Of a stretch of DNA of 60,317 nucleotides, positions 36,559-59,652 are shown one piece after another (the first letter of the stretch is position 1; each line of letters starts with the position of its first letter). The notes under the pieces are model-generated. The model had not been told where the DNA came from, searched no databases, and was given only the letters and a program-made list of their open reading frames with translations. The translations under genes were made by a program, and so were the position numbers. Source of the stretch: a virus (lineage: Duplodnaviria > Caudoviricetes); IMG/VR virus record IMGVR_UViG_3300050120_000105, positions 1-60,317 of that record; one strand, written 5' to 3'.

Positions 36559-37049
36559 TCAGTGTCTGGTTGCGGTTGTGCTCAAAAGCTTCTGGACCAG
36601 CGACGGCTCGGCATGATTGCCGTAGGTGGTCGCGATCTCTTTGACCTCGAAGGCGTCGCCGGCGAATTGCTGGCTGTCCTTGTTCAATTGAACCGGCGTG
36701 TGTTGCGAATTGATGCCGATGATTTGCTGGACGCAGAGCGCCTTATGGATGCGCTCCTTATCGGTTTCACGGACATCTGCCCGCGCCAGCAGACCCGCGA
36801 GTTCGCACCGGACATCCTCGGCAAAATTCTGGTAATGCGACTCGACGTAGCATGCTTGCGGATCTGCGCCGCAGCGGAAACCGATCTCGGACCAGAACGC
36901 GCGGAATTTCTCCGACCGACCAGCATCGCCCAACAGCCCCTTGCGGCATTGCTCGAAGAAGGCGCCAGCCATCTCCTTGCATTCATGATCAAAGAACTTG
37001 ATCAGCTTGCGGACTTCAGAGTTGGTCAGGCGTTCGCCGTCGACGATCA
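36559..37049 (-). CDS. hypothetical protein
   Basis: Probable start MIVDGERL at 37049. Confidence 0.6.
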
Positions 37050-43919: not shown

Positions 43920-45089
43920 CTACTTGAAGTCGGCCATGTCCTGTTCGGTCGGTTCGGGTTGTGGCGGGCCGGTGGTGTAGATTTTGCCCTCGACCGACGG
44001 GGGCCACGGCCAGGGGGCGCGAAAGCCAACAGCTAGGGCCGGGCGGGCCCCGAAGACGCTCGCGTTCAAAAGTTCGGTCCAAGCAGCCACCTGCCGATAA
44101 TCCTCAATCGCGACCCATTTCGAGCTGTCGGCGGCGCCCGCAAAGGCTAGGATTTGAGGGGTGATCTCGCCAGGGTAGGTAATTCTGCCCTTGTGTTCGA
44201 AGGGGCGCGCGCGGGTGACGGCGTACAGCGTCGAGATCGCTTTGCCCTCGGGGCTATCGGCCAAAATTCCAGTCACGCCGCCATGCCGCTGCGTTGGATC
44301 CCGCTTGGCAAATTCAGCCCAGGCCGCGGTTTCCTTCAGGAACAGATGCGCGCCGAGCACATTGGGCGGTTTGCGCTGCGCCTTGCGATAGGCGACGTAG
44401 CCGCGGGCGGCCGACCGGGCGAGGTTTTGTTCCTCGGGCTTGAGCGCCGACCAGACTTGCTGCGCCAACGATTGTCGCAGTATCGGCTCTTGCCAGTCTT
44501 TTTCGAAATCCTTCCAACTTTCATCGATCTCGACCGACCCCCCGGAGGGGGGCTGGGGGGATTCTTCAGGTTCAGGTTCAGAAGTTAGGCCACGTACGCA
44601 GTTAGGTGGCTGCTGGGGGGCTAAGTGGGGGGCTAACTGTTCTTCATCCTCAGAATTTGCAACTTTCCTAGGAGAGGGGCTAATTTCAACGCTTTCGGAA
44701 TTAGAATTTCCTTCTACGGCTTCGACTTTGCCTTCTGCGGCGGCCTCGATCACCTCGGGATCGGCGTCGATCATCAGCCGGATTTCGTCGGTCGTGCGAC
44801 GCCCGCGGCCATCTGCATTGCGGCGCCCGTTTTCATCCAGCCATTGAGGCATCCGGACAACGGCCCCGATGCTTTCCAGCCATATCAGCCGGCGCCGGAC
44901 GGTCTCTGGCGCGAATTCGGTATCCTCGGCGAGCTGCGCGAGACTGACGAAACACATACCTTCGCCGTTGACGTAGAGCGTCAGCGTTGAAAGCACGAGC
45001 TTGGCGTAGGGATTGCGCAGCCGAAGGTTACGAGCCCAGGCATGGGCCTCGTCTGCGGCGATACGGCGTTTGCGGCGGGGATTGGTCAA
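43920..45089 (-). CDS. Replication initiator (N-terminal wHTH)
   Basis: AKLVLSTL, CFVSLAQLAEDTE..ETVRRRL..LE; EPEPEE linker. Confidence 0.75.
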   Translation of the reverse strand: MTNPRRKRRIAADEAHAWARNLRLRNPYAKLVLSTLTLYVNGEGMCFVSLAQLAEDTEFAPETVRRRLIWLESIGAVVRMPQWLDENGRRNADGRGRRTTDEIRLMIDADPEVIEAAAEGKVEAVEGNSNSESVEISPSPRKVANSEDEEQLAPHLAPQQPPNCVRGLTSEPEPEESPQPPSGGSVEIDESWKDFEKDWQEPILRQSLAQQVWSALKPEEQNLARSAARGYVAYRKAQRKPPNVLGAHLFLKETAAWAEFAKRDPTQRHGGVTGILADSPEGKAISTLYAVTRARPFEHKGRITYPGEITPQILAFAGAADSSKWVAIEDYRQVAAWTELLNASVFGARPALAVGFRAPWPWPPSVEGKIYTTGPPQPEPTEQDMADFK

Positions 45090-45322: not shown

Positions 45323-45588
45323 GTCTTGCTTCCCGCCCCGACCGGCACGCACGCCGGCGCATCGAACGTCTCGACCTGCACCGCATCCGCCGATCGCCGC
45401 CAGGCCCTTCCGCCGCCGCCTTTCGGATGCAGCGTGACCTTGACCGCGCCGCAGACCTTGCAGGTGCGCTCGGTTTGCGGATAGCCGGAGGCGGACCTTG
45501 CCGCCGGCACCCATACCGGAGACTCGAAGGTGTGCTTCAAGGCCGGCATGTGGAGGACGTAGCCTTCGGGGATGGTGTTCATGTTCAT
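45319..45588 (-). CDS. small Cys-containing protein
   Basis: TERTCKVCGAVKVTLH. Confidence 0.65.
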   Translation of the reverse strand: MNMNTIPEGYVLHMPALKHTFESPVWVPAARSASGYPQTERTCKVCGAVKVTLHPKGGGGRAWRRSADAVQVETFDAPACVPVGAGSKT

Positions 45589-45597
45589 TTGGTTTCG

Positions 45598-46333
45598 GGA
45601 TAGTTCAACTTTGATTCCTCGTTATTAGCATCGGCGGTGTCGGCTAAGTTCCGGATGTTTCGGCTTCGACCTTCGCTTTCGGCTCGGACCGCATGCGTTT
45701 CGCCGCCGCCGCCTCTTCAGCGCGATCGGCTGCGCTCTTGACATGCGACTTGCGGATGCCGTCGATGTCTTCAGTCGGGAAGCGTCCAGTATCGTCGAAG
45801 TCTTCACGCTTGATCGGCTTGATCGTTGGGGCGGGCTCGTCGACTTCCTCCGCAACCGGATTGCCGTCAGTGTCGCGATAGACGCGAACCGGCAAGCCTC
45901 CGAGTTTGAGCACGATCTCGCCATGCGGCGGAACGATGCTTTTGAGAAATTCGACAGCCTCTTCGCGCGCGGCGAGATCGACGGCGAACTTGCCGAGCGC
46001 CATGAACAGCGGCGGTTCTTCGGCCATGCCGATCGCGTGCATATAGGTATCGAGCAGCGCTTCGGCCTGTTGGCGCTTGGCGGGATCTTCCGCACGAAGC
46101 GCGATCAGTTTTCGAATTGTCTTGGTATCGAAGCCGAGGGCCTTGCCGCGCTGGAAGATTTCCTTTTGTTGTTCGCTCAGTTGCTTCTTGCGGTCGATGA
46201 CGCCCTCGATCTCTTCGATCAGGCCGCGCAATTCCTTGCCGCTCTTGGTGCCCTTGCCGATGCTCATAACTTCATCCTTCAGAACTTAGCCGCTGCATTA
46301 CCGTTTCGTCGTGACGCTAAAGTTGTACTGTCC
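45598..46333 (-). mobile_element. Inverted-repeat cassette A (ends 45598-45651 and 46282-46333); cargo GapR-like gene
   Basis: GGATAGTTCAACTT..GGCTAAGTTC / GAACTTAGCC..AAGTTGTACTGTCC. Confidence 0.8.
45644..46267 (-). CDS. GapR/DUF2312-family nucleoid-associated protein with C-terminal extension
   Basis: LRGLIEEIE, KEIF..GK..GFDTKTIRKLIALR, LLDTYMHAIGM. Confidence 0.85.
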   Translation of the reverse strand: MSIGKGTKSGKELRGLIEEIEGVIDRKKQLSEQQKEIFQRGKALGFDTKTIRKLIALRAEDPAKRQQAEALLDTYMHAIGMAEEPPLFMALGKFAVDLAAREEAVEFLKSIVPPHGEIVLKLGGLPVRVYRDTDGNPVAEEVDEPAPTIKPIKREDFDDTGRFPTEDIDGIRKSHVKSAADRAEEAAAAKRMRSEPKAKVEAETSGT

Positions 46334-46344
46334 ATATCTGTCTC

Positions 46345-46563
46345 CTACCGCGGCACGATCTTGTATCCAGCCTGATGCAGCCCATCCAACACAGCCCGCA
46401 CTGGAATGCTGCTTTCGCTTAGCAATCGTCCCGACCAACGATAAGGCACCATCGACAGCGCACACGCGATCACTTCATCCGGATCAAGCAACGGCCCGGC
46501 GCGAGGCTTGCGGGCTTCGAGCGGCATGCGGTCGATGCTGACGGGGAGCGTGGAGGGTTTCAT
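46345..46563 (-). CDS. hypothetical protein
   Basis: Coupled; ends AGYKIVPR. Confidence 0.55.
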   Translation of the reverse strand: MKPSTLPVSIDRMPLEARKPRAGPLLDPDEVIACALSMVPYRWSGRLLSESSIPVRAVLDGLHQAGYKIVPR

Positions 46564-46871
46564 TCGGCGGGCTCCAGCAGATCAGCCATCCCTAGCGATT
46601 CCCGCTTCCGCTGCTTGATGCCACGCCGTCGTATCGGCGCGTCGTATTGATTGTGGCAGCGCTGGCACCACGCACGCAGGTTTTCATCCGAACAATTCTC
46701 GGGGACGTGATCGAGATGCGCGACCGTCAGCACAATCTTTGAACCGTCGCGGATGCTGTAATTCTGGGCTCCGCAATCCTCGCATTTGTTGCCCGCGCGC
46801 GCCCGAATTCGCAGACTGATTTGCTTCCAGTCTTTCGGGTATCGATCCTTATTTTCGGGGCGAATGGGCAT
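46560..46871 (-). CDS. HNH-like endonuclease domain protein
   Basis: CEDCG, VLTVAHLDH.PENC, NL.AWCQRCHN. Confidence 0.8.
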   Translation of the reverse strand: MPIRPENKDRYPKDWKQISLRIRARAGNKCEDCGAQNYSIRDGSKIVLTVAHLDHVPENCSDENLRAWCQRCHNQYDAPIRRRGIKQRKRESLGMADLLEPAE

Positions 46872-47386: not shown

Positions 47387-47419
47387 CTACGCGGCGCGAA
47401 GCCGCTATGCGTAGCGCTG
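47387..47419 (+). mobile_element. 33-bp palindromic mini-element copy that truncates a gene
   Basis: Exact copy; supplies the TAG at 47405-47407. Confidence 0.85.
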
Positions 47420-47704
47420 TGGCGAAGACGGGTCGCGCAGCGCCATCGCGGCGCCATCGACCAGAAAATTCGCCAGTTGGTCTTTTGTGATTTCGAATTC
47501 GAAAAACACGCCGCCAGCCGATTGAACCTTGACCACGAAGGTATTGCGCAGCGGCTCGGTCAGGTAGAACAGCTTTGCCTTCGGGTAGGCGTAAGGCTCA
47601 CGCGGCGCGTGGGCGTTGGTGAGGATGGTCTTATTTGGACAGTTCAACTTTGATTCCTCGTTATGAGCAGCGGCGGTGTCGGCTAAGTTCTTCGTGCCGG
47701 TCAC
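47405..47704 (-). CDS. hypothetical protein altered at both ends by insertions
   Basis: N-terminus reads through the cassette-B end; C-terminus cut by the 33-bp element. Confidence 0.55.
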   Translation of the reverse strand: MTGTKNLADTAAAHNEESKLNCPNKTILTNAHAPREPYAYPKAKLFYLTEPLRNTFVVKVQSAGGVFFEFEITKDQLANFLVDGAAMALRDPSSPQRYA

Positions 47705-48508
47705 AGTTCAAGTGCCTCTTGCTTTGCGGGCTTCGGCGGTTCGATGAACAAGTCAGGTCGCGCCAGCGCGTCGGTGATGCGGCGGCAGGCGATGTCGAAA
47801 TACTTGGGCTCAATCTCGATGCCGATGAACTTTCGGCCGAGCTTGACGGCGGCAACGCCGGTTGTGCCGGATCCCATGAAGGGGTCGAGGATGGTTTCGC
47901 CGGCATCGGAAAAAAGTTCTATCCACTCTCCGATAAGTTCGACCGGCTTTTGTGTGGGATGTTCGCCACGCGGTGACGGATAGGACCAGACAGCGCGCGA
48001 TCCTCCACCGTTCCAGCGTTTTGTTTCGTCTGCTCTATGGAAAATCGCAACGGCTTCCCATCCCGTCGCAGGCCTGTCGCCAGTAAACTGCGGCGCTCCG
48101 TTCGGCTTAACCCAAATTCCAAATCTCACCAGGGGAAGCCCGCTCGCCTCAGCGACTCCGATATGCCGCCAGTCGCATGTTAGGATGACCCACCTCCGCG
48201 CGATCGAAATCATCAACTCACACAATGTCAGAAAGTCTTCGCGGCTTAAGGATTCGAAATGGATACTGGCGACATTGTCCGCACCGCCGTTTTTTCCGAT
48301 ACGAGTTCGCGCGCCCGCATGAGTAACGGCGTCATAAGGCGGATCAGTCACCACGGCATCGACCTTGCCCAGTGTCGGCAGAATCTCCCGGCAGTCGCCG
48401 AGATAAAGCGTCACGCCTTCCGCCAGATGTTCGACACGATTCATTTTCTGCCTTCAGAACTTAGCCGCTGCCTTACCGTTTCGTCGTGACGCTAAAGTTG
48501 TACTATCC
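47637..48508 (-). mobile_element. Inverted-repeat cassette B (ends 47637-47690 and 48457-48508); cargo DNA methylase
   Basis: Both ends ~95% identical to the corresponding ends of cassette A. Confidence 0.8.
47701..48444 (-). CDS. N4/N6 DNA methyltransferase (beta class)
   Basis: VTDPPY, HPTQKP, LDPFMGSGTT. Confidence 0.92.
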   Translation of the reverse strand: MNRVEHLAEGVTLYLGDCREILPTLGKVDAVVTDPPYDAVTHAGARTRIGKNGGADNVASIHFESLSREDFLTLCELMISIARRWVILTCDWRHIGVAEASGLPLVRFGIWVKPNGAPQFTGDRPATGWEAVAIFHRADETKRWNGGGSRAVWSYPSPRGEHPTQKPVELIGEWIELFSDAGETILDPFMGSGTTGVAAVKLGRKFIGIEIEPKYFDIACRRITDALARPDLFIEPPKPAKQEALEL

Positions 48509-48530
48509 ATATCCAACCTAACGGCGAGCA

Positions 48531-48755
48531 TCATTGCGGCCTCCGCATCTTGCAATCGCATAGCCATTCCATGTGGACGACGTACTGATCATGATGCGGC
48601 ATCTGGACTCGCGGCCGAAGGATGATCCAGCCGAGGCGCAGCCAATCCAGGGCCTGCCAGCGCGGCACGTAATGGATGATGCGGTCCTTCACCGAACGAA
48701 CTCTGCTGATGGCGAAATCTCTCGCGCATGTGCGTAGCTTTTTGCGGGAAGCCAT
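48531..48755 (-). CDS. hypothetical protein (start uncertain)
   Basis: ORF in operon. Confidence 0.45.
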   Translation of the reverse strand: MASRKKLRTCARDFAISRVRSVKDRIIHYVPRWQALDWLRLGWIILRPRVQMPHHDQYVVHMEWLCDCKMRRPQ

Positions 48756-48886
48756 TTATTGGACCGATTGAGCGGAATATGCCGCGAAGGTGCGCGCGGT
48801 CGCGATTTGGCGAATGTCGCTTCCGGCCAGCCCTTGATCCGATCGGCGTTGCGTCGCGCTCCGCGATATTCTGATGCGTGTTTCAT
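48689..48886 (-). CDS. hypothetical basic protein
   Basis: ATGA coupling. Confidence 0.45.
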   Translation of the reverse strand: MKHASEYRGARRNADRIKGWPEATFAKSRPRAPSRHIPLNRSNKWLPAKSYAHAREISPSAEFVR

Positions 48887-50010
48887 GCCGCTTCGTCCTC
48901 TGCGTTTGGCTGTGCCTTGCGCACGGGACTCGCCGTGAACCGGATCGCGTCGTCAGGCTTGGAAAGGGCTTCGCGGCAGCCAGGCGGTATCCAGAACGGC
49001 GCCAGTGGCTGGGCTCCCTTCAACCAGACCAGCCACATGTACGCGGTTGCGGTAGATCCCTCCGGGTCCCATCGCCCCTTGCAGAGATTGACGCGCTCGG
49101 CAAAGAACGCGATCAGCGTCGGCGGTGTGTCCTTGAAGATGCGTTCATAGCGACCGATCGAATCGAGCCATTGCACGCGCATGAACATCGCAATGCCGGT
49201 GCCGACCAGATCGAGCGCTTTCAGCACAAAGGCCTCGCCGAGATCGCCGAAGGGCGGGTTGGTGATGATCCAGTCCGCGCCTCGGAGTATTTCGGGACCG
49301 AGGAAGTCGACAACGCGGTCGCCATAACCATAATCGTGAATGTCGGAGGCGATCACCGAGCGGAAATATTCCCGCAACACTTCGGCCATGTGGCCATCGC
49401 CGCATGCCGGTTCCCACGCGTGCTGCCATTTGCAATGGCCGCGACGTTCGAGGTGCGGGAAAACATGTTCGATCAGCGCGCGCGTAGCCCAGGGCGGCGT
49501 CGGGAAGTGGTCTAGGCTGTCGTCGGGTTCCTGCCGTGAGCCCATGACGGCGCGGGCACTGTTGATGGCGGCCTCGCCGATCCGCATCAGATCCATGGTG
49601 ACGCGGGTCTGGCCGGCTTCCATTTCGTCGCGCCACGCGCCGACGCGCGCCTCAAACTCTGCCGGGGGCACCGCAGCCATCTTTTGGGCATGAGCCGAAA
49701 ACTTATGAGAGACGCCGATATCCTCCAGTTTGATCGGAGAAACCCCTTCCGGTTCGGCAGTGGTTTTGGCTGGAGGGCGGCCGCCCTTATGGAGCCCAAT
49801 GGTCTCTTTTTGCGCGGCAATCATCTGGCCGAATCGGCGCTCGGCGTGAAAACGAATCTCGGCGGCGTCGATTTCGAGGCTACGATCACCGGCGCGCCGA
49901 GCGTATTCCTTCATCGCCACGGCCTTGTCGAGGATCGACTTGACGTCGTCGACGGCCTTGGCCTCGGCGAGCATGATGCGGGCTTGATCGTAGGGGACGA
50001 GATCCGTCAT
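48883..50010 (-). CDS. Adenine-type DNA methyltransferase with N-terminal helical/HTH domain
   Basis: DHFPTPPWAT, WEPACGDGHM, IITNPPF. Confidence 0.85.
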   Translation of the reverse strand: MTDLVPYDQARIMLAEAKAVDDVKSILDKAVAMKEYARRAGDRSLEIDAAEIRFHAERRFGQMIAAQKETIGLHKGGRPPAKTTAEPEGVSPIKLEDIGVSHKFSAHAQKMAAVPPAEFEARVGAWRDEMEAGQTRVTMDLMRIGEAAINSARAVMGSRQEPDDSLDHFPTPPWATRALIEHVFPHLERRGHCKWQHAWEPACGDGHMAEVLREYFRSVIASDIHDYGYGDRVVDFLGPEILRGADWIITNPPFGDLGEAFVLKALDLVGTGIAMFMRVQWLDSIGRYERIFKDTPPTLIAFFAERVNLCKGRWDPEGSTATAYMWLVWLKGAQPLAPFWIPPGCREALSKPDDAIRFTASPVRKAQPNAEDEAA

Positions 50011-50036
50011 CTAGCGAACCTCGCGACAGGTCATTT

Positions 50037-50420
50037 TCAGCCGGGAGGCAGCGCCTCCCGATAGATTTCCTTGCCGGGCACCAAATCCCAGATGTTCCGG
50101 CAGAATGGTTCGCCGTGCGTCATGTCCATCAACCACTTCATGGTGACGCCACGATCCCAAAACCACTCGCCGCGCAGATGGCCTTCGCGCAATTGCTGAT
50201 GCACCAGCGGTTCGACATCCGGCGGAGCCGCGACGACCCCAATAAGTTCGAGTTTCCGCGCGCTGCCAACTTGGAGATCGGAAAGCCGGTGCCAATGGTC
50301 GCGTGAGTATCCGACCTTGATCGCGTCGGCCTCCGCATCGCGGATGAAGTAAACTGAGCCGAGTTCGGTTTCCGCGATCCAGAATTCTCGCAGAGAGACC
50401 AATCGAGTACGCAGGAACAT
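50037..50420 (-). CDS. GIY-YIG-like (T5orf172/Mug113) domain protein
   Basis: VYFI, IKVGYS, RLSDLQ, E..VH, GEWF. Confidence 0.75.
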   Translation of the reverse strand: MFLRTRLVSLREFWIAETELGSVYFIRDAEADAIKVGYSRDHWHRLSDLQVGSARKLELIGVVAAPPDVEPLVHQQLREGHLRGEWFWDRGVTMKWLMDMTHGEPFCRNIWDLVPGKEIYREALPPG

Positions 50421-50742
50421 AACACCCTCGCTGGCTGGCGATACAATCTAAGCGTTTAGCACAGAATGCGGCGATCTTCATGATTAAGGTTGCACTCATA
50501 GGTTTGCACTCGCTCGGGATAAGAACCGTTCGACGACGCACGCAAAACTCATTTACCGGGGACGCAACACAACGCGCAGAAACCGCTCAAAAAAAGCAGT
50601 CAGAAAGGACGTGAGGACCTTCGAAACCGGACGACGTTGGTCGCTTCGGACCGGCGATCGGCCCTGGTGCGCAGCACGTAGCGCAGCGCAAAGTAGGCGA
50701 TGGCGAGGATGGTGAAGGCGGCATAGCCGTAAAGGATCGTGG

Positions 50743-51045
50743 TCATGCGGCCTCCGCGAAACGCTCTGAGGCTTCAAGAATCGACTGGATCAAGCGCCAG
50801 CCGCTTTCAGATGGTCTAAAGAACGGCCCGCGCGGAGATTCTCCGGGCACTTTCCTGTTCCAGATTTCGATCAGTTCACGCCGCCACAGCGGCACCACTG
50901 CGCGGCGCGAAGCCGCTATGCGCAGCGCCGTTGCCTCTCGCTGATCGCGAGTCAGGGTAATCTGACCGCCATTGGAGCAGCAGATCGCGAGATGTTTCAA
51001 TGTCGCGATCTGCCGGTTTGAGAGACGTTCGCCTTTCACAGGCAT
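50743..51045 (-). CDS. hypothetical protein with in-frame 33-bp element
   Basis: Contains TALRIAASRRAV derived from the element. Confidence 0.65.
   Translation of the reverse strand: MPVKGERLSNRQIATLKHLAICCSNGGQITLTRDQREATALRIAASRRAVVPLWRRELIEIWNRKVPGESPRGPFFRPSESGWRLIQSILEASERFAEAA
50898..50930 (+). mobile_element. 33-bp palindromic mini-element copy (in-frame insertion)
   Basis: CTGCGCGGCGCGAAGCCGCTATGCGCAGCGCCG. Confidence 0.85.
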
Positions 51046-51602
51046 TCTCCGATAATTTCACGCTTGAGGGCGGCAACCTTGTCTTCGTCCGTTTGAACCT
51101 CGCCGATCAATGCAACCAGCCACCAGCGTTCGCCTTTCCATTTCGGCGGAATGAACGTCGCGTGCAGACCTTGCGCGGTGCAGATCCGCAGCGGTCCCTT
51201 GATGGTTTCGATGGTGCCCGGGCCAACGGGATCGTTCTTTCCACCATTCGCCGCGCGACCATTCTTGTCGGAACGCCAGAAGGCAATCATCGCGCCTTCT
51301 TGCTGCAGCTCCGCAAAACGCTTTTGCTGTTGCTCTGGCATCTTCCTTGCAAAATTCGGAATCGTGGCCAACCAATATTCCTTGGAGCCGGAGCCGTAGC
51401 CGTAGCCGGAGCCGTCGCCGGAGCCGGAGCCGGAGCCGGAGCCGTCGCCGGAGCCGTAGCCGTCGCCGGAGCCGTAGCCGTAGCCGTAGCCGGAGCCGGA
51501 GCCGTAGCCGTAGCCGGAGCCGTCGCCGGAGCCGGAGCCGTCGCCGGAGCCGTTCAAAAATGAGTGCGGGACTTCGCCCCGCACGAGTCTCGCTTCGCTC
51601 AT
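51036..51602 (-). CDS. Gly-(Ser/Tyr/Asp) repeat protein
   Basis: ATG 51602 coupled; GSGDGSGYGYG tract. Confidence 0.75.
   Translation of the reverse strand: MSEARLVRGEVPHSFLNGSGDGSGSGDGSGYGYGSGSGYGYGYGSGDGYGSGDGSGSGSGSGDGSGYGYGSGSKEYWLATIPNFARKMPEQQQKRFAELQQEGAMIAFWRSDKNGRAANGGKNDPVGPGTIETIKGPLRICTAQGLHATFIPPKWKGERWWLVALIGEVQTDEDKVAALKREIIGECL
51383..51552. repeat. Hexamer microsatellite (GGCTCC/GGCTAC/GGCGAC on minus strand)
   Basis: ~28 tandem 6-bp units. Confidence 0.9.
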
Positions 51603-51925
51603 TTCCATGGTGCGCTTTCCCATGCTGCGACAGCGGCAGTCGTGACCTCGGCAACCGAGGTAATGTCGCGAAGCTCGATATCGGCGGCCGGCCCGACGCG
51701 CGCGCCTTTGACCGGCCCCATGTTGGCGAGGCCCATGAAGCCCTTGTTTTCTGCCGGCCAATAGATGCAGTTACGCGCCGCGCGAAGCTTGATGGTCTCA
51801 CCGTCGGTATCGAGGGCGTAACCAAAGAACACGCCTCTGTGACTTGTTGTAACTAGAACTGCCCTCTCTTCTTTCTTCAAATGTGCCGCCAAGTGTTCCT
51901 CCCGTTTGATTAAAGATGAGCCCAT
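51599..51925 (-). CDS. Conserved phage protein (DUF6948-like), usual partner of GYG-repeat proteins
   Basis: VLVTTSHRGVFFG, ARNCIYW, GLA..GP. Confidence 0.7.
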   Translation of the reverse strand: MGSSLIKREEHLAAHLKKEERAVLVTTSHRGVFFGYALDTDGETIKLRAARNCIYWPAENKGFMGLANMGPVKGARVGPAADIELRDITSVAEVTTAAVAAWESAPWK

Positions 51926-52539
51926 GCTCTCCGTGCCCGGATCGCAGAGACGGTTTCCATGCTGATCAAGTATTGTGAAGCGATTTCGCGACGCGTCCGC
52001 TTGTCAGACCTGATGGCCACGACCTGTTCAGGCTGCAGTTTTGCGGTATGAACGCGCTCACCTCTGTTGTGACGATCCTTCGCAATGCAATCGCGATTGT
52101 TGTCGACCCTGGTACCGGCAAAGAGATGGCTTGGCCGACAACAGGCTGGGTTATCGCAGGAGTGACAGGCGCAGAGACCTGCGGCCAACTTCCCTCTTGT
52201 GATTAGATATGCGGCCTGATGCGCTTGCCGTGGAAATCCTTTCTCAGAATAGCGTGCGTAGCCATCCTTTGAGCGAGCCGAAGGATATTCCCAACAACCG
52301 GCCTTGCCAGCTTGATCAAGTAAAAACGCAGCCATTCTCGGATGGCGACGACCATAACAGCCGCAGGATTTGGTGTGCCCGCTCCGTAGACCGGACGTAA
52401 GGGCAATCACCACTACCGCGCCGCAGTCGCATAGACATTTCCAGCGCTGCTGTGCGTGGACGTTTGAATCTAGCCGCTCAATTACGAGCAATCGTGCAAA
52501 ACGCTGCCCTACAAGATCAAACCGCTGCCCGCTGGTCAT
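51910..52539 (-). CDS. HNH homing endonuclease
   Basis: WKCLCDCG, TKSCGC, CWEY, CHSCDNPACCRPSHL..GT..DN. Confidence 0.85.
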   Translation of the reverse strand: MTSGQRFDLVGQRFARLLVIERLDSNVHAQQRWKCLCDCGAVVVIALTSGLRSGHTKSCGCYGRRHPRMAAFLLDQAGKAGCWEYPSARSKDGYARYSEKGFPRQAHQAAYLITRGKLAAGLCACHSCDNPACCRPSHLFAGTRVDNNRDCIAKDRHNRGERVHTAKLQPEQVVAIRSDKRTRREIASQYLISMETVSAIRARRAWAHL

Positions 52540-52548
52540 GCGGCGCTC

Positions 52549-52827
52549 CTATCGTCGGTCAGGCAGCCAAAGATTGATGACGGCTTGGATAGTGCGCGCG
52601 GTAGGCTCCTGCTCGCCTGAAATCTGATAAGCGGCGGCGCGTACCGAGCAACCGACAAGGGCCGCGAGTTCTTCTGCGGTTTTGTTCGGCCACATCCCTT
52701 TGCAAGCTTTACCGAACCACGAACTGCAAATTCTTGCATCGCCCTGCAGGATGTTTCGCTCGATTTTCGCGGCGCCCGCGATCTCGCGCTCGTAAACCGT
52801 ACGCATGAACAAACCCCTGATACGCAA
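52549..52827 (-). CDS. CII-like HTH regulator
   Basis: WPNKTAEELAALVGCSVRAA..QISGE; downstream of cro. Confidence 0.55.
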   Translation of the reverse strand: MRIRGLFMRTVYEREIAGAAKIERNILQGDARICSSWFGKACKGMWPNKTAEELAALVGCSVRAAAYQISGEQEPTARTIQAVINLWLPDRR

Positions 52828-52957
52828 TGCAACAAATCAACTGCCGTTAACCCAACTGAGAGAAAAATTTTCCGTGACACGAAACCGCCATACGGACCAT
52901 GCTGCGGCAAAACGCGCAGGGGGCGGAAATGGGGAAGATTATTCGATTTCCGGGGCA

Positions 52958-53170
52958 TCAGGCGCGCACCTCGGTTTCCAGGGGATACAAATCGGGGCGC
53001 AGTTCATGCCTGGAGACGCCGGAGACGCGCTCGACCACCAGCACGCGAAGCGGAGGAACCTCATTCCATTGTGAAACGGCCTGCGCAGTCACACCGACGG
53101 CCCGCGCAAACTTGGCCTGGCCGCCGACATTTTCGACCGCTCGTTTGAGGGCTTCTTTCTTGTCATCCAT
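52958..53170 (-). CDS. cro: Cro-like (YdaS family) repressor
   Basis: GGQAKFARAVGVTAQAVSQW, VSRHELRPDLY. Confidence 0.88.
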   Translation of the reverse strand: MDDKKEALKRAVENVGGQAKFARAVGVTAQAVSQWNEVPPLRVLVVERVSGVSRHELRPDLYPLETEVRA

Positions 53171-53181
53171 AGTCGTCACCT

Positions 53182-53243
53182 CAAGCATGGCTTTTACCTC
53201 AAAGTCAAGTTTTGCTTCATTGTTTGCCTAAAGCCGGGCTTTA
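53182..53243. promoter_or_regulatory. Three putative operators AAG(C/T)-N3-GCTT between cro and cI
   Basis: CAAGCATGGCTTT 53182, CAAGTTTTGCTTC 53206, TAAAGCCGGGCTTTA 53229; TATAAT at 53242. Confidence 0.7.
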
Positions 53244-53253
53244 TAATGCGGAA

Positions 53254-53574
53254 ATGACTTTAGGAAATCGCATCAAGGCGGCCCGCGAGCGCCTTCGGCC
53301 AAAGCCGACTCAGGCCGAGATAGGTGCCCACTTCGGCGTCACCGACAAAGCTGTCTCCGGGTGGGAACGAGACGAGGCAATCCCGGAACTGGATAAGATC
53401 GCTAAGTTGTCGAGATTACTCAGGATTCCAGTTATTTGGCTGCTCGAAGGGACGGACGATCCACCTCCCCCCGATTCGCTGGAAAAGGACATCGAACAGC
53501 TCCAGCCCCATGAACGCGCCGTGGTGCGCACCATGGTCGACGCTTTCAGCAAAAACCGGGATACCGTCGCCTAA
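53254..53574 (+). CDS. cI: CI-like XRE repressor without peptidase domain
   Basis: LGNRIKAAR, TQAEIG..FGVTDKAVSGWE; divergent from cro; probably leaderless ATG. Confidence 0.85.
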   Translation: MTLGNRIKAARERLRPKPTQAEIGAHFGVTDKAVSGWERDEAIPELDKIAKLSRLLRIPVIWLLEGTDDPPPPDSLEKDIEQLQPHERAVVRTMVDAFSKNRDTVA

Positions 53575-53612
53575 TCCACAGCTTTCGTGGCCGGCCAGAT
53601 ATTTTTTGATAT

Positions 53613-53638
53613 TTGACTAAAGCAACAAGCTATGCTTG
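53613..53638 (+). promoter_or_regulatory. Early rightward promoter/operator
   Basis: TTGACT followed by palindrome CAAGCTATGCTTG. Confidence 0.6.
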
Positions 53639-53671
53639 AGTGCTCCCACACCAACAGGGAGCCGCCACCCC

Positions 53672-53998
53672 ATGACAACCACCTTCCAGACAGAACCCCG
53701 CCCTTCCCCGCTCTACCTCGTCCTCTGTGGCCAGCACATCGACGAATACGCAGCCGAGCGCGACGTCAACGACATGGATCGCGAGACAACGATCCGCGAT
53801 ATCGCAGCCGGCGAATTCGAAACGCTCTCGCGCGTGATCGAGATCGGCACCGGCGCCGATGTCACCAAGGACTTCGCCAGACAGGTCATGACGATCTGGG
53901 CTGGGCGAGGCGAGACGCTTTCTTACCGTCAATATGAATTCGTCGAGATCCACGTCGGTACGCGCGCGGCGCGGTCGTTTCTGCGGAGGGCTGCGTGA
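53672..53998 (+). CDS. hypothetical protein
   Basis: GGGAG RBS, ATG 53672. Confidence 0.65.
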   Translation: MTTTFQTEPRPSPLYLVLCGQHIDEYAAERDVNDMDRETTIRDIAAGEFETLSRVIEIGTGADVTKDFARQVMTIWAGRGETLSYRQYEFVEIHVGTRAARSFLRRAA

Positions 53999-54255
53999 TG
54001 GTCGCGATCGGCGGAAAGCCTCGCAAGGCAAAGCTTCCCTCGCAGCCGCAAGTCGTCGTGCAGCGCGCCGCTTTCACCAACGAATTCGCGCTGTTCAGTG
54101 CCGACGACAAAGGCATGACGATCATCACATGGATCGGCGACCCGAACGCCGCGACCAAATTCAATTCGAAATATGAAGCCAAATCCCGCGTGCGCGACAT
54201 GCATGACGTTCCGGACTCGCGCGTGTTCAAGGTTTTGCAGAAGGAGACTGTGTGA
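53995..54255 (+). CDS. hypothetical protein
   Basis: Coupled ORF. Confidence 0.6.
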   Translation: MMVAIGGKPRKAKLPSQPQVVVQRAAFTNEFALFSADDKGMTIITWIGDPNAATKFNSKYEAKSRVRDMHDVPDSRVFKVLQKETV

Positions 54256-55034
54256 TGATGATGTTAGACCGCGCTGAAATCCCCGCAACCGACCGCCTTG
54301 TCAGCACTGCCGACAACCAGCCCTCGCGCATCGACTTCGCCGTCGAAGCCTATGACGAACTGCGCACGTACCTGAAATCGCATCCCGTTGTTATGAGCCA
54401 GGACGATGCCCAGGCCGGCGCCGCCGTAAACGAGCGCACGCTTGTCGCTTTGAACGAAGCCCGCGCCGAACGCGAGACCAAAACCCGCCCGTTCCGCGAC
54501 CGGCTGAATGCGATCTTCGATGCCTACGCGCTGGTCAAGGACAAGGGCACGCTGGAAACCGCCCGCGGCGAGCTGCGCAAGCGGCTGACAAAATACGCCA
54601 ACGATATCGAGGCCAAGCGCATCGCCGAGGTCGAGCGGTTGCGCAAGGAAGCCGAAGAAGCCGAACGGATTGCCCGCGAAGCCGAAGCCGCCGAACGCGA
54701 GGCGATCGACGATGCCGAACAGGGCGTCGAGAGCGACGTCGGCGAGGCAATCCAGCAGGCGGATCAGGCGTTCACGGACTTCCGGCGCGCGGACAAGACG
54801 GCTGCGATCGCCGCCAAGAACGTGCCGGTGCGGTTCAAGAGCGTGCTGGGAGGCAATTCGCGCGGCATGCGGACGGTCGAGGTTTTGGTGATCGAGGATG
54901 TCGCCAAGGTGATCAGGATTTTAGGGATGACCGACAAGATCAGGGACGCGATTTTGTCCAGCGCCCGCGACTACCGCCGCGAATACGACGAGCTTCCCGC
55001 CGGCATCACCGCAACCTTTGAGAGGACTTTGTAA
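54252..55034 (+). CDS. Coiled-coil early protein (recombination-region)
   Basis: AAGGAG RBS; long EAR-rich helix; LPAGI tail. Confidence 0.7.
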   Translation: MMMMLDRAEIPATDRLVSTADNQPSRIDFAVEAYDELRTYLKSHPVVMSQDDAQAGAAVNERTLVALNEARAERETKTRPFRDRLNAIFDAYALVKDKGTLETARGELRKRLTKYANDIEAKRIAEVERLRKEAEEAERIAREAEAAEREAIDDAEQGVESDVGEAIQQADQAFTDFRRADKTAAIAAKNVPVRFKSVLGGNSRGMRTVEVLVIEDVAKVIRILGMTDKIRDAILSSARDYRREYDELPAGITATFERTL

Positions 55035-55529
55035 ATGAACACGTCAGCAGCACTTCAACAGCCGCGCTTTGAGCAAGGCACCATCACCGTCCAGAACATC
55101 TATCCCTCGAAAGGCCAAGGCAAGTCGGCCCACATCAAGGATTCGGACGGTATGTTGTTCGGTATCTGGCCGGACAAGCTTGGCCTCGTCCAGGTCGGAG
55201 GAACTTACGAGATCGAGTTTTCCGCCAGCACCAAGAACGGCACCACGTACCGCGATATCAAGCAACTGCACATGGTGGAAAAGCCGCAGCCGCAGCCGGC
55301 GCGTTCATTGTCGTCGGCCGCGGCGCCGGCGCCGCAGACAGAGAAGCCGCAGAACGGCGGATACTACCGGCCGACAGCGCCGCAGGATTCCGAGCGCATG
55401 TTCTGCTGCAGTACGCTCAACGCCTTCATCCAGACCGGCCGCGTTGAATGTCATCGCGAGCATCTGACGATAGCGATCAACGAGCTGCGCGCGGCCTATG
55501 CGGCGACGTTCGGCGCCGACGACCACTGA
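55035..55529 (+). CDS. Possible ssDNA-binding OB-fold protein
   Basis: Beta-rich N-terminus, P/Q linker, acidic end. Confidence 0.5.
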   Translation: MNTSAALQQPRFEQGTITVQNIYPSKGQGKSAHIKDSDGMLFGIWPDKLGLVQVGGTYEIEFSASTKNGTTYRDIKQLHMVEKPQPQPARSLSSAAAPAPQTEKPQNGGYYRPTAPQDSERMFCCSTLNAFIQTGRVECHREHLTIAINELRAAYAATFGADDH

Positions 55530-55639
55530 CACCCGTTACCTCGCCAAAGGCGTAGCGGCTCCATGGCGAGGGAGGCGGCGGCGGGTTTTTAAGCATCCTC
55601 GTCGCCGCCAACTAATTCAAAGGCATCACAGGGGACACC

Positions 55640-55834
55640 ATGAACATCCAACTCAAACCGGAAACCCGCCGTTTCATCGAGGATTTTGTCGCGCACGAAA
55701 TCACCACGCTGACCGCACTCGATCCGTTCGGCATCGACGATCCCTGCCCGGGAAGCCCGGACGGCCATTACCAGTTGTGGGACGGGCCGCGCACGCTGGT
55801 ATGCGCGCATTGCGCGAAGGTGCTGTGGTCATGA
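55640..55834 (+). CDS. small Zn-finger-like protein
   Basis: CPGSPDGH...CAHC. Confidence 0.6.
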   Translation: MNIQLKPETRRFIEDFVAHEITTLTALDPFGIDDPCPGSPDGHYQLWDGPRTLVCAHCAKVLWS

Positions 55835-56064
55835 ACTCCTTCCTGATCGACGGCCCGCTGATGTCCACCTTCGATCGCCGCAAGGCGATGATCGAGCGCA
55901 TGGCGAAAGACCTGGTCAAATTCGACGCCGCGCAGAACGAAGCCGACGCGATCCGATCGCTGATGGCGCGGGGCTACTCGCCGTTCGCCGTGCTGCGCTA
56001 TGTCGACGATGCGCGGCAGGTGGCGTTCCAGAGCATTGTTGCGAGGGAGATGGCGAAGTCGTGA
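55831..56064 (+). CDS. hypothetical protein
   Basis: ATGA coupling at 55831. Confidence 0.65.
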   Translation: MNSFLIDGPLMSTFDRRKAMIERMAKDLVKFDAAQNEADAIRSLMARGYSPFAVLRYVDDARQVAFQSIVAREMAKS

Positions 56065-56152
56065 GGCCAGAGGGATGGATAGTACAACTTGAGCGTCACG
56101 GTTTAAACACCAGCGCAGCGGCTAAGTTCGATCCGCAGCTAGGAGCTACAAG

Positions 56153-56329
56153 ATGGGAAAGCGCGCGTTGATCGACATCGCCGGCGAACTCAAAGGCGAG
56201 ACCGACAAAGCTTTTCGAATTTTCGACGGCAAAACGACTGAATGGGTGCCGAAGTCGCAAGTCGAGCAGAACCCTGACGGCACTTTCACAATGCCAGAAT
56301 GGCTGGCACAGGATAAAGGATTCATCTGA
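56153..56329 (+). CDS. Small conserved phage protein (58 aa, not in ORF track)
   Basis: AGGAG RBS; ETDKA...WVPKSQ...MPEWLA.DKG. Confidence 0.75.
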   Translation: MGKRALIDIAGELKGETDKAFRIFDGKTTEWVPKSQVEQNPDGTFTMPEWLAQDKGFI

Positions 56330-56574
56330 TGGCACACGTTTACGAAGGACAACCGGATGGCCGGCAGGCCGACACGGCGATTGAAGTCAGCCGCTTTCGC
56401 CCGAAGTATCGAGCGTTGAGCAACGAAGAAAAGTCGCTGCACGACGCAATCAAGGACGAAGCCGCCGTGCTCGAAACCTTGTTCGCCAAGGTCAAGCCAG
56501 GTCGCTACAACTCGCTAGCAATCACGTCGCTCGAACAGTCAATTATGTGGATCGTCAAGGAATTGACGTCGTAA
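56329..56574 (+). CDS. Acb2/Tad1-like cyclic-nucleotide sponge (anti-CBASS candidate)
   Basis: YRALSNEE...K...E.L...PGRYNSLAITSLEQSIMW resembles the Acb2 pattern YRDLSQEE...PGRW..GKT.IQ.GMM. Confidence 0.7.
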   Translation: MAHVYEGQPDGRQADTAIEVSRFRPKYRALSNEEKSLHDAIKDEAAVLETLFAKVKPGRYNSLAITSLEQSIMWIVKELTS

Positions 56575-56657
56575 CCAAACGCGGCGCTTAGAACTTAGCC
56601 GCTGAGTCGGTGAAGCGTCGTCGCGTTTGAGTTGTACTATCCAAATCGGACTTCCAA

Positions 56658-57094
56658 TGATCAGACCGCAACGCATCGTTCACGATTCGAAACCCGGCGA
56701 TTTACTCAAACGCGCGACCGCGCCGACCGCGACAGCGCGAACCTCCGACCATGGAGATGCCGATTATTTGGCCCTTATCAGGCAAATGCCCTGCCTTTCC
56801 TGCGGCATGGAACTGTCTGAGGCCGCTCACCTACGTCTTTCAAGTGCAGCGTATGGCAAGGCGAGCGGCCTCGGGAAGAAGCCTCATGACAAGTGGGCGC
56901 TTTCATTATGCAGCCAATGCCATCGCCTGGCGAAAACAGCCCAACATAACCGCAACGAAGCCGAGTTTTGGGCAAGCCTGGGCATCAATCCCCTCAGTTG
57001 CGCCGTTGAACTTTATGCGGCGCGCGGCGATCCGGTCTCGATGCGGATGATCGTCGTGCTGACGATTGCGACGCGTTGGAAACGGGATGGATAG
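56658..57094 (+). CDS. DUF968/HNH-like Zn-binding protein
   Basis: YLALIRQMPCLSCG, EAAHL, KPHD..ALSLC..CH, QH; stop codon supplied by cassette D end. Confidence 0.75.
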
Positions 57095-57473
57095 TACAAC
57101 TTGAGCGTGAGTGACTGAGTATCGGCGATAGAGGCTAAGTTCGGAAGACAGCAAAAAGGAAACGACACGATGAAAATGACGTTACAGAGCACGACCAAGA
57201 TCGTCGAATTGAGATCACGCAGTGGTGGGGTGATGCAGGCCAGGATATGGGAGGGCACAACCGAGAATGGTGTGCCGGTCCACGCCTTCATCACACGGGT
57301 CGCGTGCCACAAGGATGAGGATAACAGCGAGCTTGAGCGCGACCTTCGCGAGCACGTCGCGCCATCCGATAATATTGGCAAAGCCTATGATTTACGCTTC
57401 TTCATCGACTAGCCGGAGGACGAACTTAGCCGCTCAGTCAGTGCAGCGTCGTGTCGGTAAAGTTGAACTATCC
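57089..57473 (+). mobile_element. Inverted-repeat cassette D (ends 57089-57142 and 57422-57473)
   Basis: GGATAGTACAACTT..GGCTAAGTTC / GAACTTAGCC..AAGTTGAACTATCC. Confidence 0.8.
57170..57412 (+). CDS. hypothetical protein (cargo of cassette D)
   Basis: AAGGA RBS; ARIWEG.T..GVPVHAFITRV. Confidence 0.7.
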   Translation: MKMTLQSTTKIVELRSRSGGVMQARIWEGTTENGVPVHAFITRVACHKDEDNSELERDLREHVAPSDNIGKAYDLRFFID

Positions 57474-57579
57474 AAATGAACGCATGTGGATTGTTTAGTT
57501 TGTGCGCAGGGAAAAACTGGAATCGACGTAAAATGATGGATGTACTTTTGAACACGCGCCCGGAGCGCTGAACCGCTAG

Positions 57580-57940: not shown

Positions 57941-58860
57941 CAGACCACGCAAGCGAGCGAGAGACGAACTTTAGGGAATGTGAATACCCGAACTGCACTT
58001 GCCCGCGCCACGGTCGTTGCATGGTCGCTAAGCTGGCAGACGAATATGAAGCCGGTCTCCGAAAAATGGAAGCGGCTGGATACGAGGAATTCGCGCAGAC
58101 GATCATCAAACACAGAATGGTCATCGCCGCTCTCCGCGCACCCGCTCCAGTCGCAGTGAGGGGACGTGTAATGAACCAAAAACAATACCCCTCTGACGGC
58201 TACCCAGAGGATGATTCGGCCAACGCCGCCATCCCGCGTGAGCAGGATGCGAAGCCGGTCGCGTGGATGAACTCTGTTCATATCGAAGCCTATCAATCCG
58301 GCCAGAGGGGTGGCGTGGCGTGGACCTCCCCTATGGAGAGTGAATTTTATAATGTAGCGGTCTACGCCGCCCCGCCCTCGGATTCGCCGGGGAGCGCCCA
58401 CCAACCTCAAGGCGGCGACGCGCGGGAGGACAAATTGCGATCGTTCTTATCGATCCTTGCAGCAGCCGGTGGCCAGACCAGCGGTAACGATGACAAGTGG
58501 AACTGGATCAACTATTTCTGTGACGACGCCGAACCCTTGGACACGTTTAACCAAGCCAGCAAGCGCAAATTGACGCGCGTCACGCATGATTCAGATACGG
58601 ACAATTCCGTCGTCTATCTAACCGATGCTGGCCGCGCATTTATCGCCACCCCACCCGCCCCGGTGCGGCCTCAAGGCGGCGACGCGCGGGAGCATGAAAT
58701 CGTCGCCCTGCCGGAGAATTGGCCCTACGCGCGTAAAAAAGCATCTATTCAGGTCATCGTCGCAAGAGAGATGATGAAGGCCGGCGCCCCGCCCCCGGTG
58801 CGGGCCGCTGCCGAGCCGGGAGAGATGCCACTGCCCCACATACAGGAGAAACAAAAATGA
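57937..58860 (+). CDS. Mosaic accessory protein with internal direct repeats
   Basis: KPVAWM...VYAAPP module; PQGGDARE twice. Confidence 0.65.
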   Translation: MTDHASERETNFRECEYPNCTCPRHGRCMVAKLADEYEAGLRKMEAAGYEEFAQTIIKHRMVIAALRAPAPVAVRGRVMNQKQYPSDGYPEDDSANAAIPREQDAKPVAWMNSVHIEAYQSGQRGGVAWTSPMESEFYNVAVYAAPPSDSPGSAHQPQGGDAREDKLRSFLSILAAAGGQTSGNDDKWNWINYFCDDAEPLDTFNQASKRKLTRVTHDSDTDNSVVYLTDAGRAFIATPPAPVRPQGGDAREHEIVALPENWPYARKKASIQVIVAREMMKAGAPPPVRAAAEPGEMPLPHIQEKQK

Positions 58861-59069: not shown

Positions 59070-59413
59070 GCGCACTTGACGACATCGCCAAAGAGCGCCA
59101 GCGCCAGATCAGCAAAGAAGGCTGGACGTTGGCACACGATGACGAGCATGACCGGGGCGAACTCGCTGATGCTGCGGCTTGCTATGCTGCCACTACGCGC
59201 GCTTTTAAGGCCGAAGAGTTCGCGGGCGTCGGCTATAAGCCCTACACGTCCTATTCCGATCTGTGGCCGCAATCCTGGTCCGACCATTGGTTCAAGCCTA
59301 AGAAAAGTCGGCGCCGCAAACTCATTATTGCGGCCGCGCTGATCGTCGCTGAGATTGAGCGCCTTGATCGCGCCGCCCTCTCCCCGGCCAGCGCCAATGA
59401 GGGGGAGACATGA
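59066..59413 (+). CDS. Conserved phage protein
   Basis: ERQRQI.KEGWT..HDDEH..GELA.AA.CYA, WP, AALIVAEIERLDR. Confidence 0.75.
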   Translation: MSALDDIAKERQRQISKEGWTLAHDDEHDRGELADAAACYAATTRAFKAEEFAGVGYKPYTSYSDLWPQSWSDHWFKPKKSRRRKLIIAAALIVAEIERLDRAALSPASANEGET

Positions 59414-59652
59414 GCGAACCAAGAAAGAAATTTGTCGGACAGCCGAAGCCCGTCGCATTCAACGTCGATGACACCGCTGAGGTCTATCGGCTGCTGAGCG
59501 AGTGCTGGGGCTATCTCAGGATGTGCCACCACAAACACGGTACGGATTGGGAAGGTCGCCAGTTTGCTATGAATGCTCTTGAAGAATTGCAGAAGCGTGA
59601 CTGGAAACTTGTTCCATCCCCGCCCAGCGCCAATGAGGGGAGCGCAGCATGA
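59410..59652 (+). CDS. hypothetical protein
   Basis: Coupled; flanked by 24-bp direct repeat. Confidence 0.65.
   Translation: MSEPRKKFVGQPKPVAFNVDDTAEVYRLLSECWGYLRMCHHKHGTDWEGRQFAMNALEELQKRDWKLVPSPPSANEGSAA

Follow-up and report, generated by a model that had tools for sequence, protein, structure and literature searches.

In T4-type phages, promoter-early stem-loops (PeSLs) have been described as mobile regulatory cassettes made of sigma-70 promoters and terminator stem-loops (PMC2839356, PMC4122927), and mini-circles have been proposed as their vectors (PMC2839356). Mobile insertion cassettes (MICs) and MITE-like elements (those resembling miniature inverted-repeat transposable elements), in turn, hold passenger genes between inverted repeats of the insertion sequence (IS) or Tn3 type and are moved in trans (PMC3913671, PMC4337579), while the dif, or pdif, modules of Acinetobacter plasmids carry variable cargo between short recombination sites (PMC13141974, PMC12907356), as far as the accounts available to us describe these systems. 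Here we analyse four cassettes, A to D, in IMGVR_UViG_3300050120_000105, a complete IMG/VR virus record of 60,317 bp that we refer to as the window. The cassettes are genuine discrete, horizontally shared units, whose ends are constant and whose cargo is replaced between them. Our best explanation, which we hold with about even confidence, is that they represent a small, previously undescribed family of transposase-less cassettes, in which cargo is exchanged at the conserved ends and entry into new positions is guided by homology.

The end that defines these cassettes is bipartite and 52-55 nt long, namely, an outer box (GGAYAGTWCAACTT), a spacer of 27-30 nt and an inner box (GCGGCTAAGTTC). 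When the window was searched with the 14-nt outer-box sequence GGATAGTACAACTT, allowing up to two mismatches, nine matches were obtained against 0.14 expected, a number reached by none of 100 shuffles; and in eight of the nine the inner box, sought as GGCTAAGTTC, lies 27-30 nt further in. These eight ends form four inverted pairs with their outer boxes facing outwards, and each pair encloses one or two genes that are co-directional with the surrounding operon. The sequences quoted in an earlier annotation of this DNA, prepared from the letters only (hereafter, the sequence-only reading), were confirmed where it had placed them. The cassettes, their ends and the features that abut them are as follows.

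45598-46333, minus strand: cassette A, enclosed by an inverted end pair.
45598-45651, minus strand: right (3') end of A, with the outer box at 45598-45611 and the inner box at 45642-45651.
45583-45597: seven extra bases (CGAAACC) plus AAATGAAC, outside the right end of A.
46282-46333, minus strand: left (5') end of A, 94% identical to the left end of B over 68 nt.
47637-48508, minus strand: cassette B, enclosed by an inverted end pair.
47637-47690, minus strand: right end of B, 94% identical to the right end of A.
48457-48508, minus strand: left end of B.
47405-47647, minus strand: gene downstream of B, whose frame runs into the right end of B, with a Shine-Dalgarno sequence and TTG inside that end.
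56077-56642, plus strand: cassette C, enclosed by an inverted end pair.
56077-56129, plus strand: left end of C; the upstream gene, 55498-56064, stops 12 nt earlier.
56591-56642, plus strand: right end of C.
56657-57094, plus strand: DUF968/HNH-like gene between C and D, with its ATG at 56657 and its stop TAG inside the left outer box of D.
57089-57473, plus strand: cassette D, enclosed by an inverted end pair.
57089-57142, plus strand: left end of D; counted with the flank, its first 25 nt (GGGATGGATAGTACAACTTGAGCGT) match those of C exactly.
57422-57473, plus strand: right end of D, followed by AAATGAAC.

Left and right ends have distinct forms. The outer box of left ends mostly reads GTAC (seven of nine); the spacer of these ends resembles AGCGTCACGACG..AAAC, and after the end come a Shine-Dalgarno sequence and the ATG of the cargo. 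In right ends the outer box reads GTTC in six of 12, GTAC in three and otherwise in three, and AAAT follows in seven of the 12, continuing as CCAAATGA in four. The same 8-mer, AAATGAAC, stands after the seven extra bases of A and directly after D. Terminal inverted repeats at both ends are present in all four window cassettes, and in other records as six more pairs or partial pairs.

Outside the window, the exact two-box pattern was found at seven loci in six other IMG/VR contigs, and looser matching gave pairs or partial pairs in the records that we call G001, G002 (three cassettes), G003, G004 and G005, with a partial one in L002. G001 is a provirus also present in Bradyrhizobium sp. URHD0069, and on our best reading the carriers are phages of soil and peat alphaproteobacteria, one host being a Bradyrhizobium. 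Beyond the ends, only two short matches, both to G004, connect the other carriers with the 16-kb region of the window. A profile built from 21 aligned ends recovered all of them at E <= 4e-9 and nothing else convincing. Eight new loci that a looser end pattern returned from viral contigs have no outer box and were discarded as chance matches. A single end-like sequence at 4155-4210 of L011, a Methylophilaceae metagenome-assembled genome, has a profile E of 8e-5 and no partner in 8 kb; it could have matched by chance, or could be a stray end.

Three comparisons speak to the replacement of cargo. First, the ends of A and B, 94% identical on both the left and the right, surround unrelated genes. 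Second, in G002 and G004 unrelated cargo of ~308 and ~426 nt, respectively, stands between a shared right end (53 nt, 94%) and a shared left end (44 nt, 93%) that is truncated in both phages and has no outer box; since cargo differs between ends without a left outer box, an intact outer-box pair is not needed for cargo exchange. Third, the Acb2-like gene carried by cassette C occurs in 32 other viral loci, none of which has a cassette end as judged with the profile of 21 ends, and its DNA homology to those loci begins exactly at its ATG. Together with the observation that no cargo open reading frame (ORF) matches the cargo of another cassette, among 12 cassettes compared, these end-less loci identify the ends as the constant part, with genes placed between them.

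G002 and G004 also share, between 23.6-30.5 kb of the former and 37.4-44.1 kb and 0.1-0.5 kb of the latter, at least ten islands of 40-74 nt and 90-97% identity that separate unrelated genes. These islands are boundary sequences of kinds other than the cassette ends, and they show that boundary-sequence mosaicism is active in these phages.

The cargo of the four window cassettes is small and varied, with the following genes.

45644-46267, minus strand: cargo of A, 207 residues, with an N-terminal GapR-like DNA-binding domain (PF10073, E 1.7e-20).
47701-48444, minus strand: cargo of B, an N6/N4 DNA methyltransferase of 247 residues (PF01555, E 6e-29; phrog_67).
56153-56329, plus strand: first cargo gene of C, 58 residues, phrog_8389, with no assigned function.
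56329-56574, plus strand: second cargo gene of C, 81 residues, Acb2/Tad1-like (PF24729, 49 bits against a cut-off of 27).
57170-57412, plus strand: cargo of D, 80 residues, with no family match.

Thus, the cargo consists of GapR-like, methyltransferase, Acb2-like or unassigned small proteins, with no transposase among them, and in the other phages the single family match is a second methyltransferase, in L002. The model of the 81-residue protein has two long helices (pLDDT 78), and its top six fold matches in the PDB are all Acb2 (probability 0.97-0.99, TM-score 0.57-0.60, E 0.08-0.3); a sequence search of the PDB gave no match. This protein is a candidate cyclic-nucleotide sponge acting against CBASS. 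The cargo of D, for which no relative was found through viral contigs, may belong with counter-defence genes. In locus L067, an Acb2-like gene and a homologue of the D cargo (77% DNA identity) lie at 1501-1746 and 2113-2298, ~370 nt apart on opposite strands, with no end.

How do these cassettes compare with the described systems? The likeness to PeSLs, as these are portrayed in the sources at hand, lies in short conserved borders of small, mostly unassigned accessory genes in variable regions, with the gene replaced between the motifs; here too, the breakpoints of replacement fall in the border motif (A against B, and G002 against G004). However, the cassette ends show neither promoter or terminator matches nor a hairpin, and they come in inverted pairs whose left and right members differ in form, whereas the PeSL copies that flank a gene lie in direct orientation. 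With MICs and MITE-like elements, following the available descriptions, the cassettes share terminal inverted repeats that enclose passenger genes with no transposase inside. They differ in that no parent IS was found, in that there is no clear fixed-length target duplication and no cassette in two copies, in the length (52-55 nt) and bipartite structure of their ends, and in their setting at phage operon junctions.

Integron cassettes likewise hold single small genes of unrelated function, for the most part without a promoter and co-oriented, and combine a conserved recombination sequence with hypervariable cargo. Each has a single attC site that forms an imperfect hairpin, and depends on IntI and attI; in contrast, the cassettes described here have two ends each that do not fold, the window has no integrase match, and the sites are scattered instead of forming an array. 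In pdif modules, to judge from what has been reported of them, a host enzyme shuffles modules between replicons and the module carries no enzyme, which is the likeness to our cassettes. The sites in question are XerC/XerD sites of 28 bp in inverse orientation, whereas the cassette ends span 52-55 nt, with boxes of 14 and 12 bp placed 27-30 nt apart and no evident 11-6-11 layout. The mycobacteriophage elements MPME1 and MPME2 are also very small inverted-repeat mobile elements inside phage genomes. These are ~440 bp long, have short repeats and carry a single conserved ORF, the presumed transposase, whereas in the family described here the cargo differs in every copy. The family resembles PeSLs, MICs, integron cassettes and dif modules in different respects, and wherever the defining features of such a system could be tested, at least one of them is lacking here.

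The explanation that we favour starts from the observation that the ends look as if built to keep translation coupled across the insertion. The left end supplies the upstream gene with stop codons and the cargo with a ribosome-binding site, and the right end, followed by AAAT(G), gives the downstream gene a start context, so that a cassette can sit co-directionally at a gene junction of an early operon without breaking the operon. Cargo would then be replaced by homologous recombination within the ends during co-infection, and a new junction would be entered via short flanking homology, for example by integration of a small circle.

Two cassettes have flanks of the kind that such entry would leave. 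In G001, a 17-nt exact direct repeat flanks the cassette plus a few extra bases, and in G002_3 a 13-nt exact direct repeat does the same, neither being reached in 300 shuffles. The upstream flank in G001 duplicates, with divergence, codons 1-16 of the downstream gene, which is itself intact; this copy ends in the shared 17-mer and abuts the left end. In G002_3 the final 13 nt of the upstream gene reappear beyond the right end, immediately ahead of the ribosome-binding site of the next gene. A single crossover of similar recipient sequence with a small circle, made up of the cassette and part of its former surroundings, would result in this layout, much as has been proposed for the mini-circles of PeSLs (PMC2839356).

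Several points weigh against this explanation. First, seven of the nine complete cassettes, including the four of the window, have no flanking repeat of at least 8 nt beyond chance, the single shared 8-mer of one of them being reached by 40 of 300 shuffles; since repeats are found in only two cassettes, the model of entry by homology rests on two cases. Second, AT can be read at both borders of A, B, C, D and G001 (five of the nine complete cassettes), and ATG at those of A, D and G001 (three of nine). An AT(G) repeat would look like a transposase-type target duplication at a start codon, although these bases may belong to the end. Third, end-to-end homologous recombination alone cannot create the first slot at a new locus. 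Fourth, the strict inverted pairing, and the spacing of the two boxes at about four helical turns, look like those of protein-binding sites. Lastly, neither a circle nor a product of excision nor an unoccupied site came to light, and the contigs of four public sequencing runs, which drop rare variants, showed no joint across a cassette.

Beyond homology-guided entry, it is tempting to speculate on a phage cassette system proper, in which bipartite inverted adapter ends would fit any small accessory or counter-defence gene into an operon junction, with translation coupled on both sides, and in which the units would travel as small circles from one phage to another, unrelated one, moved by an enzyme encoded by neither the cassette nor the phage. 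We put this forward as a tentative proposal, with a probability well below even.

Another view, which we consider unlikely, extends the sequence-only reading. It takes the cassettes for non-autonomous transposon-like or site-specific elements, comparable with MICs or MITEs, which some enzyme, probably host-encoded, would insert at a preferred target at start codons (at ATG/CCAAAT, or with duplication of AT(G)), and whose precise excision would restore the junction. The strict inverted pairs and the two conserved boxes agree with such an enzyme, as do the border repeats of AT or ATG in five and three of the nine complete cassettes, the seven filler bases exactly at the border between box and flank in A, and insertion at gene borders, namely, B at the start of ORF 47405 to within one residue of its homologues, and D within two codons of the DUF968 stop. 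The core of the sequence-only reading was that excision by one rule, joining the flank that ends in ATG to the flank that starts with CC, restores coupled reading frames, and here the four cassettes gave different answers.

Cassette B fits. Its join reads ATG CCA AAT AAG ACC, in frame with ORF 47405, and frame 0 stays open over 77 codons; a join would fall in frame by chance in one case out of three, and as it stands the right end of B gives GAGGA-N7-TTG in frame with the same ORF. The position of B directly at the real start of the gene downstream was also borne out, since several of twelve homologues from the protein collection begin MSETIITNT where the window has (M)PNKTILTNA, within one residue. 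Cassette C contradicts the rule. The join places GTG 56061 in frame with ATG 56657, adding 11 codons upstream; however, in two viral homologues of the DUF968 protein, with 72% and 54% identity, the start corresponds to ATG 56657, so that the proposed GTG-overlap start is unsupported, C is intergenic and its excision is unneeded. Cassettes D and A are neutral. In D the predicted join, CGG GAT GCC AAA TGA, and its ATGA overlap were reproduced, with ATG 57476 opening an ORF of only 31 codons. The stop of the DUF968 gene is now the TAG in GGATAG, which makes its protein one residue longer than the homologue in L008, whereas the form 'restored' by excision would be three residues longer (our own count, from aligned C-termini). 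The join of A yields only a five-codon ORF, which had been called ambiguous, its right tip carrying CGAAACC before AAATGAAC. Outside the window, the rule restores nothing in G001, whose downstream gene is intact and whose upstream flank is a partial duplicate.

The same reading had also seen these as real insertions into a preferred target, ATGCCAAAT. The units are indeed real and shared, given that the same ends surround other genes in unrelated phages, but the target was not supported. The left tips read ATGG in all four cassettes and the right tips CCAAAT in three, so that any cut made there would look identical in each cassette and the agreement on one rule is not independent evidence. AT stands before the left box in five of nine left ends and AAAT after the right box in seven of 12 right ends, across phages and contexts, and just outside the left box A and B share GATAT while C and D share GGGAT, namely, five bases, two of them beyond the proposed cut. 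Since the bases of ATGCCAAAT recur with the ends, and the shared bases pass beyond the cut, this 'target' consists largely of element-linked bases; the 'restored' sequence would thus be mostly the cassettes' own conserved tips, and its bases may be element tips rather than a target. No unoccupied ATGCCAAAT is present in the window, and with one mismatch allowed there are eight matches against 16 expected.

Empty junctions in relatives were the proposed check. L008 and L009 show none, which is weak evidence against the prediction, as these relatives are distant (42-72% amino acid identity); in both, the slot between the genes like 55498-56064, or recombination genes, and DUF968 holds other genes and no ends. 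No empty site, reading for instance GGATGCCAAAT, was found among the relatives, genomes and contigs examined. The protein of ORF 47405 has no relative in viral contigs, and a search of 400 other genomes of the genus gave no close match to the flanks around the Bradyrhizobium prophage cassette. In the contigs of the four public runs, three of which may be the source of this DNA, there is no joint that skips a cassette; these contigs break at the repeat formed by the left ends of A and B, and the low-depth run X4 has holes and is uninformative.

The enzyme itself was sought in several places. No protein of the window matches the tyrosine (Phage_integrase, PF00589), serine (Resolvase) or DDE (rve) recombinase families, and none has homologues in all other carriers. 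Phage integrases of the carriers were rejected as movers, since they are mostly unrelated to each other. The DUF968/HNH protein was also rejected, for it adjoins cassettes in the window and in G002, where its homologue lies 840 nt from a cassette, yet L008 and L009 have DUF968 without cassettes. Searches of viral contigs, cultured phages, plasmids, 185,579 species genomes and the genome of the Bradyrhizobium host gave no autonomous element with these ends and no cognate transposase; the pattern scan of the 185,579 genomes returned only the Bradyrhizobium provirus and one solitary end-like match. That host genome shows no enrichment of the inner box (four matches against 15 for a reversed control) when searched for it, and no attB-like half-sites were seen by eye in the flanks. 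Hairpin or attC-like folding of the ends was ruled out as well, as single ends fold no better than shuffles (eight of eight ends, z +0.3 to +1.35). The lack of a cognate transposase or autonomous copy in these collections counts against insertion by an enzyme, as do the absence of any cassette that occurs twice with the same cargo, the swapping of cargo in a slot without a left outer box, the conservation of the 'target' bases with the ends and beyond the proposed cut, the contradicted reconstruction of C and the failure of the rule in G001. We do not favour a dedicated enzyme that cuts at ATG^CC.

More doubtful still is the possibility that the ends are mainly regulatory modules, namely, operators or promoter-like sites at which a DNA-binding protein of host or phage would control accessory and counter-defence genes. 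They would recur because genes of this sort require such control, and mobility would be a by-product, as in PeSLs. From the left end to the cargo start downstream there are always 12-27 nt, and a conserved Shine-Dalgarno-like stretch such as GTTCTGAAGG is present in most copies; the asymmetry of left and right is kept across phages; all window cassettes are co-oriented with their operon; and the inner box, CTAAGT, is loosely like the -10 element of a promoter-like motif of the window and G002. In contrast, no end has a sigma-70-like or terminator-like match, the boxes are 27-30 nt apart, which is too far for a -35/-10 pair, no regulatory use is obvious for an inverted copy behind the cargo, and no regulator is common to the carrier phages. 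The promoter-like motif in question, TTGCAA-N17-CTAATT (GGGCTAATTTC), whose second part resembles the cassette inner box, occurs at 44640-44687 of the window and at 36620-36661 of G002, in two unrelated phages; it may resemble alphaproteobacterial consensus promoters.

Finally, a role in RNA, in which the ends would pair in the operon transcript and loop out the cargo, marking it for RNase III-type processing or for a removal that restores coupled frames, is very improbable: the inverted repeats do allow duplexes of 14 nt and 10-12 nt and the cassettes are co-oriented with transcription, but none of the eight single ends folds better than shuffles, GTAC on the left (seven of nine) against GTTC on the right (six of 12) is an uncompensated mismatch, the ends match no Rfam family, and we know of no splicing of this kind in bacteria.

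The surroundings of the cassettes deserve a brief description. The right quarter of the window holds two divergent early operons that flank a cI-like helix-turn-helix (HTH) gene at 53212-53574; the phage has this cI-like gene yet no integrase match in the window. The same region encodes a NusG-like protein, an HTH_36-domain protein that is taken as a replication protein, an exonuclease, a backbone methyltransferase and three HNH-type nucleases. The backbone DNA methyltransferase (48883-50010, minus strand, phrog_799) lies just upstream of the methyltransferase of cassette B. As to the HNH-type genes (46560-46871 and 51910-52539, both minus strand, and 56657-57094, plus strand), one separates cassettes A and B and another separates C and D, and no consistent link with the cassettes was found.

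Several repeats were also noted in this region. Within the ORFs at 51036-51825 (minus strand), positions 51366-51575 hold nine overlapping copies of an array of GGAGCC/GTAGCC/GTCGCC hexamers with 12/18-nt spacing; its minus-strand product should be a glycine-rich repeat protein, for which there was no family match, and Logan contigs break at the array. A 37-nt direct repeat, 89% identical, occupies the 3' ends of two minus-strand genes (47387-47423 and 50898-50934). Contigs of runs X2 and X3 have a 21-nt insertion behind position 47394, and contigs break at this repeat. In the rightward operon there are two pairs of 24-nt direct repeats, namely, 58405-58428 and 58669-58692 (264 nt apart, 100% identical) and 59381-59404 and 59617-59640 (236 nt apart, 96% identical).

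Phages gain and lose counter-defence genes fast, and the vehicles of this traffic are poorly known. The cassette ends provide a searchable DNA signature that marks exchangeable slots in unrelated soil phages, and with a methyltransferase and an Acb2-like sponge among the cargo they could serve as bait for new anti-defence genes. If no enzyme is involved, as in the explanation that we favour, the family would be a clean case, outside T4-like phages, of boundary sequences that drive modular exchange. If an enzyme does act on the ends, it would define a new cassette-recombination system; and if adapter ends and small circles do form a phage cassette system, as tentatively proposed above, this would be a functional analogue of integrons or dif modules for the anti-defence genes of phages.

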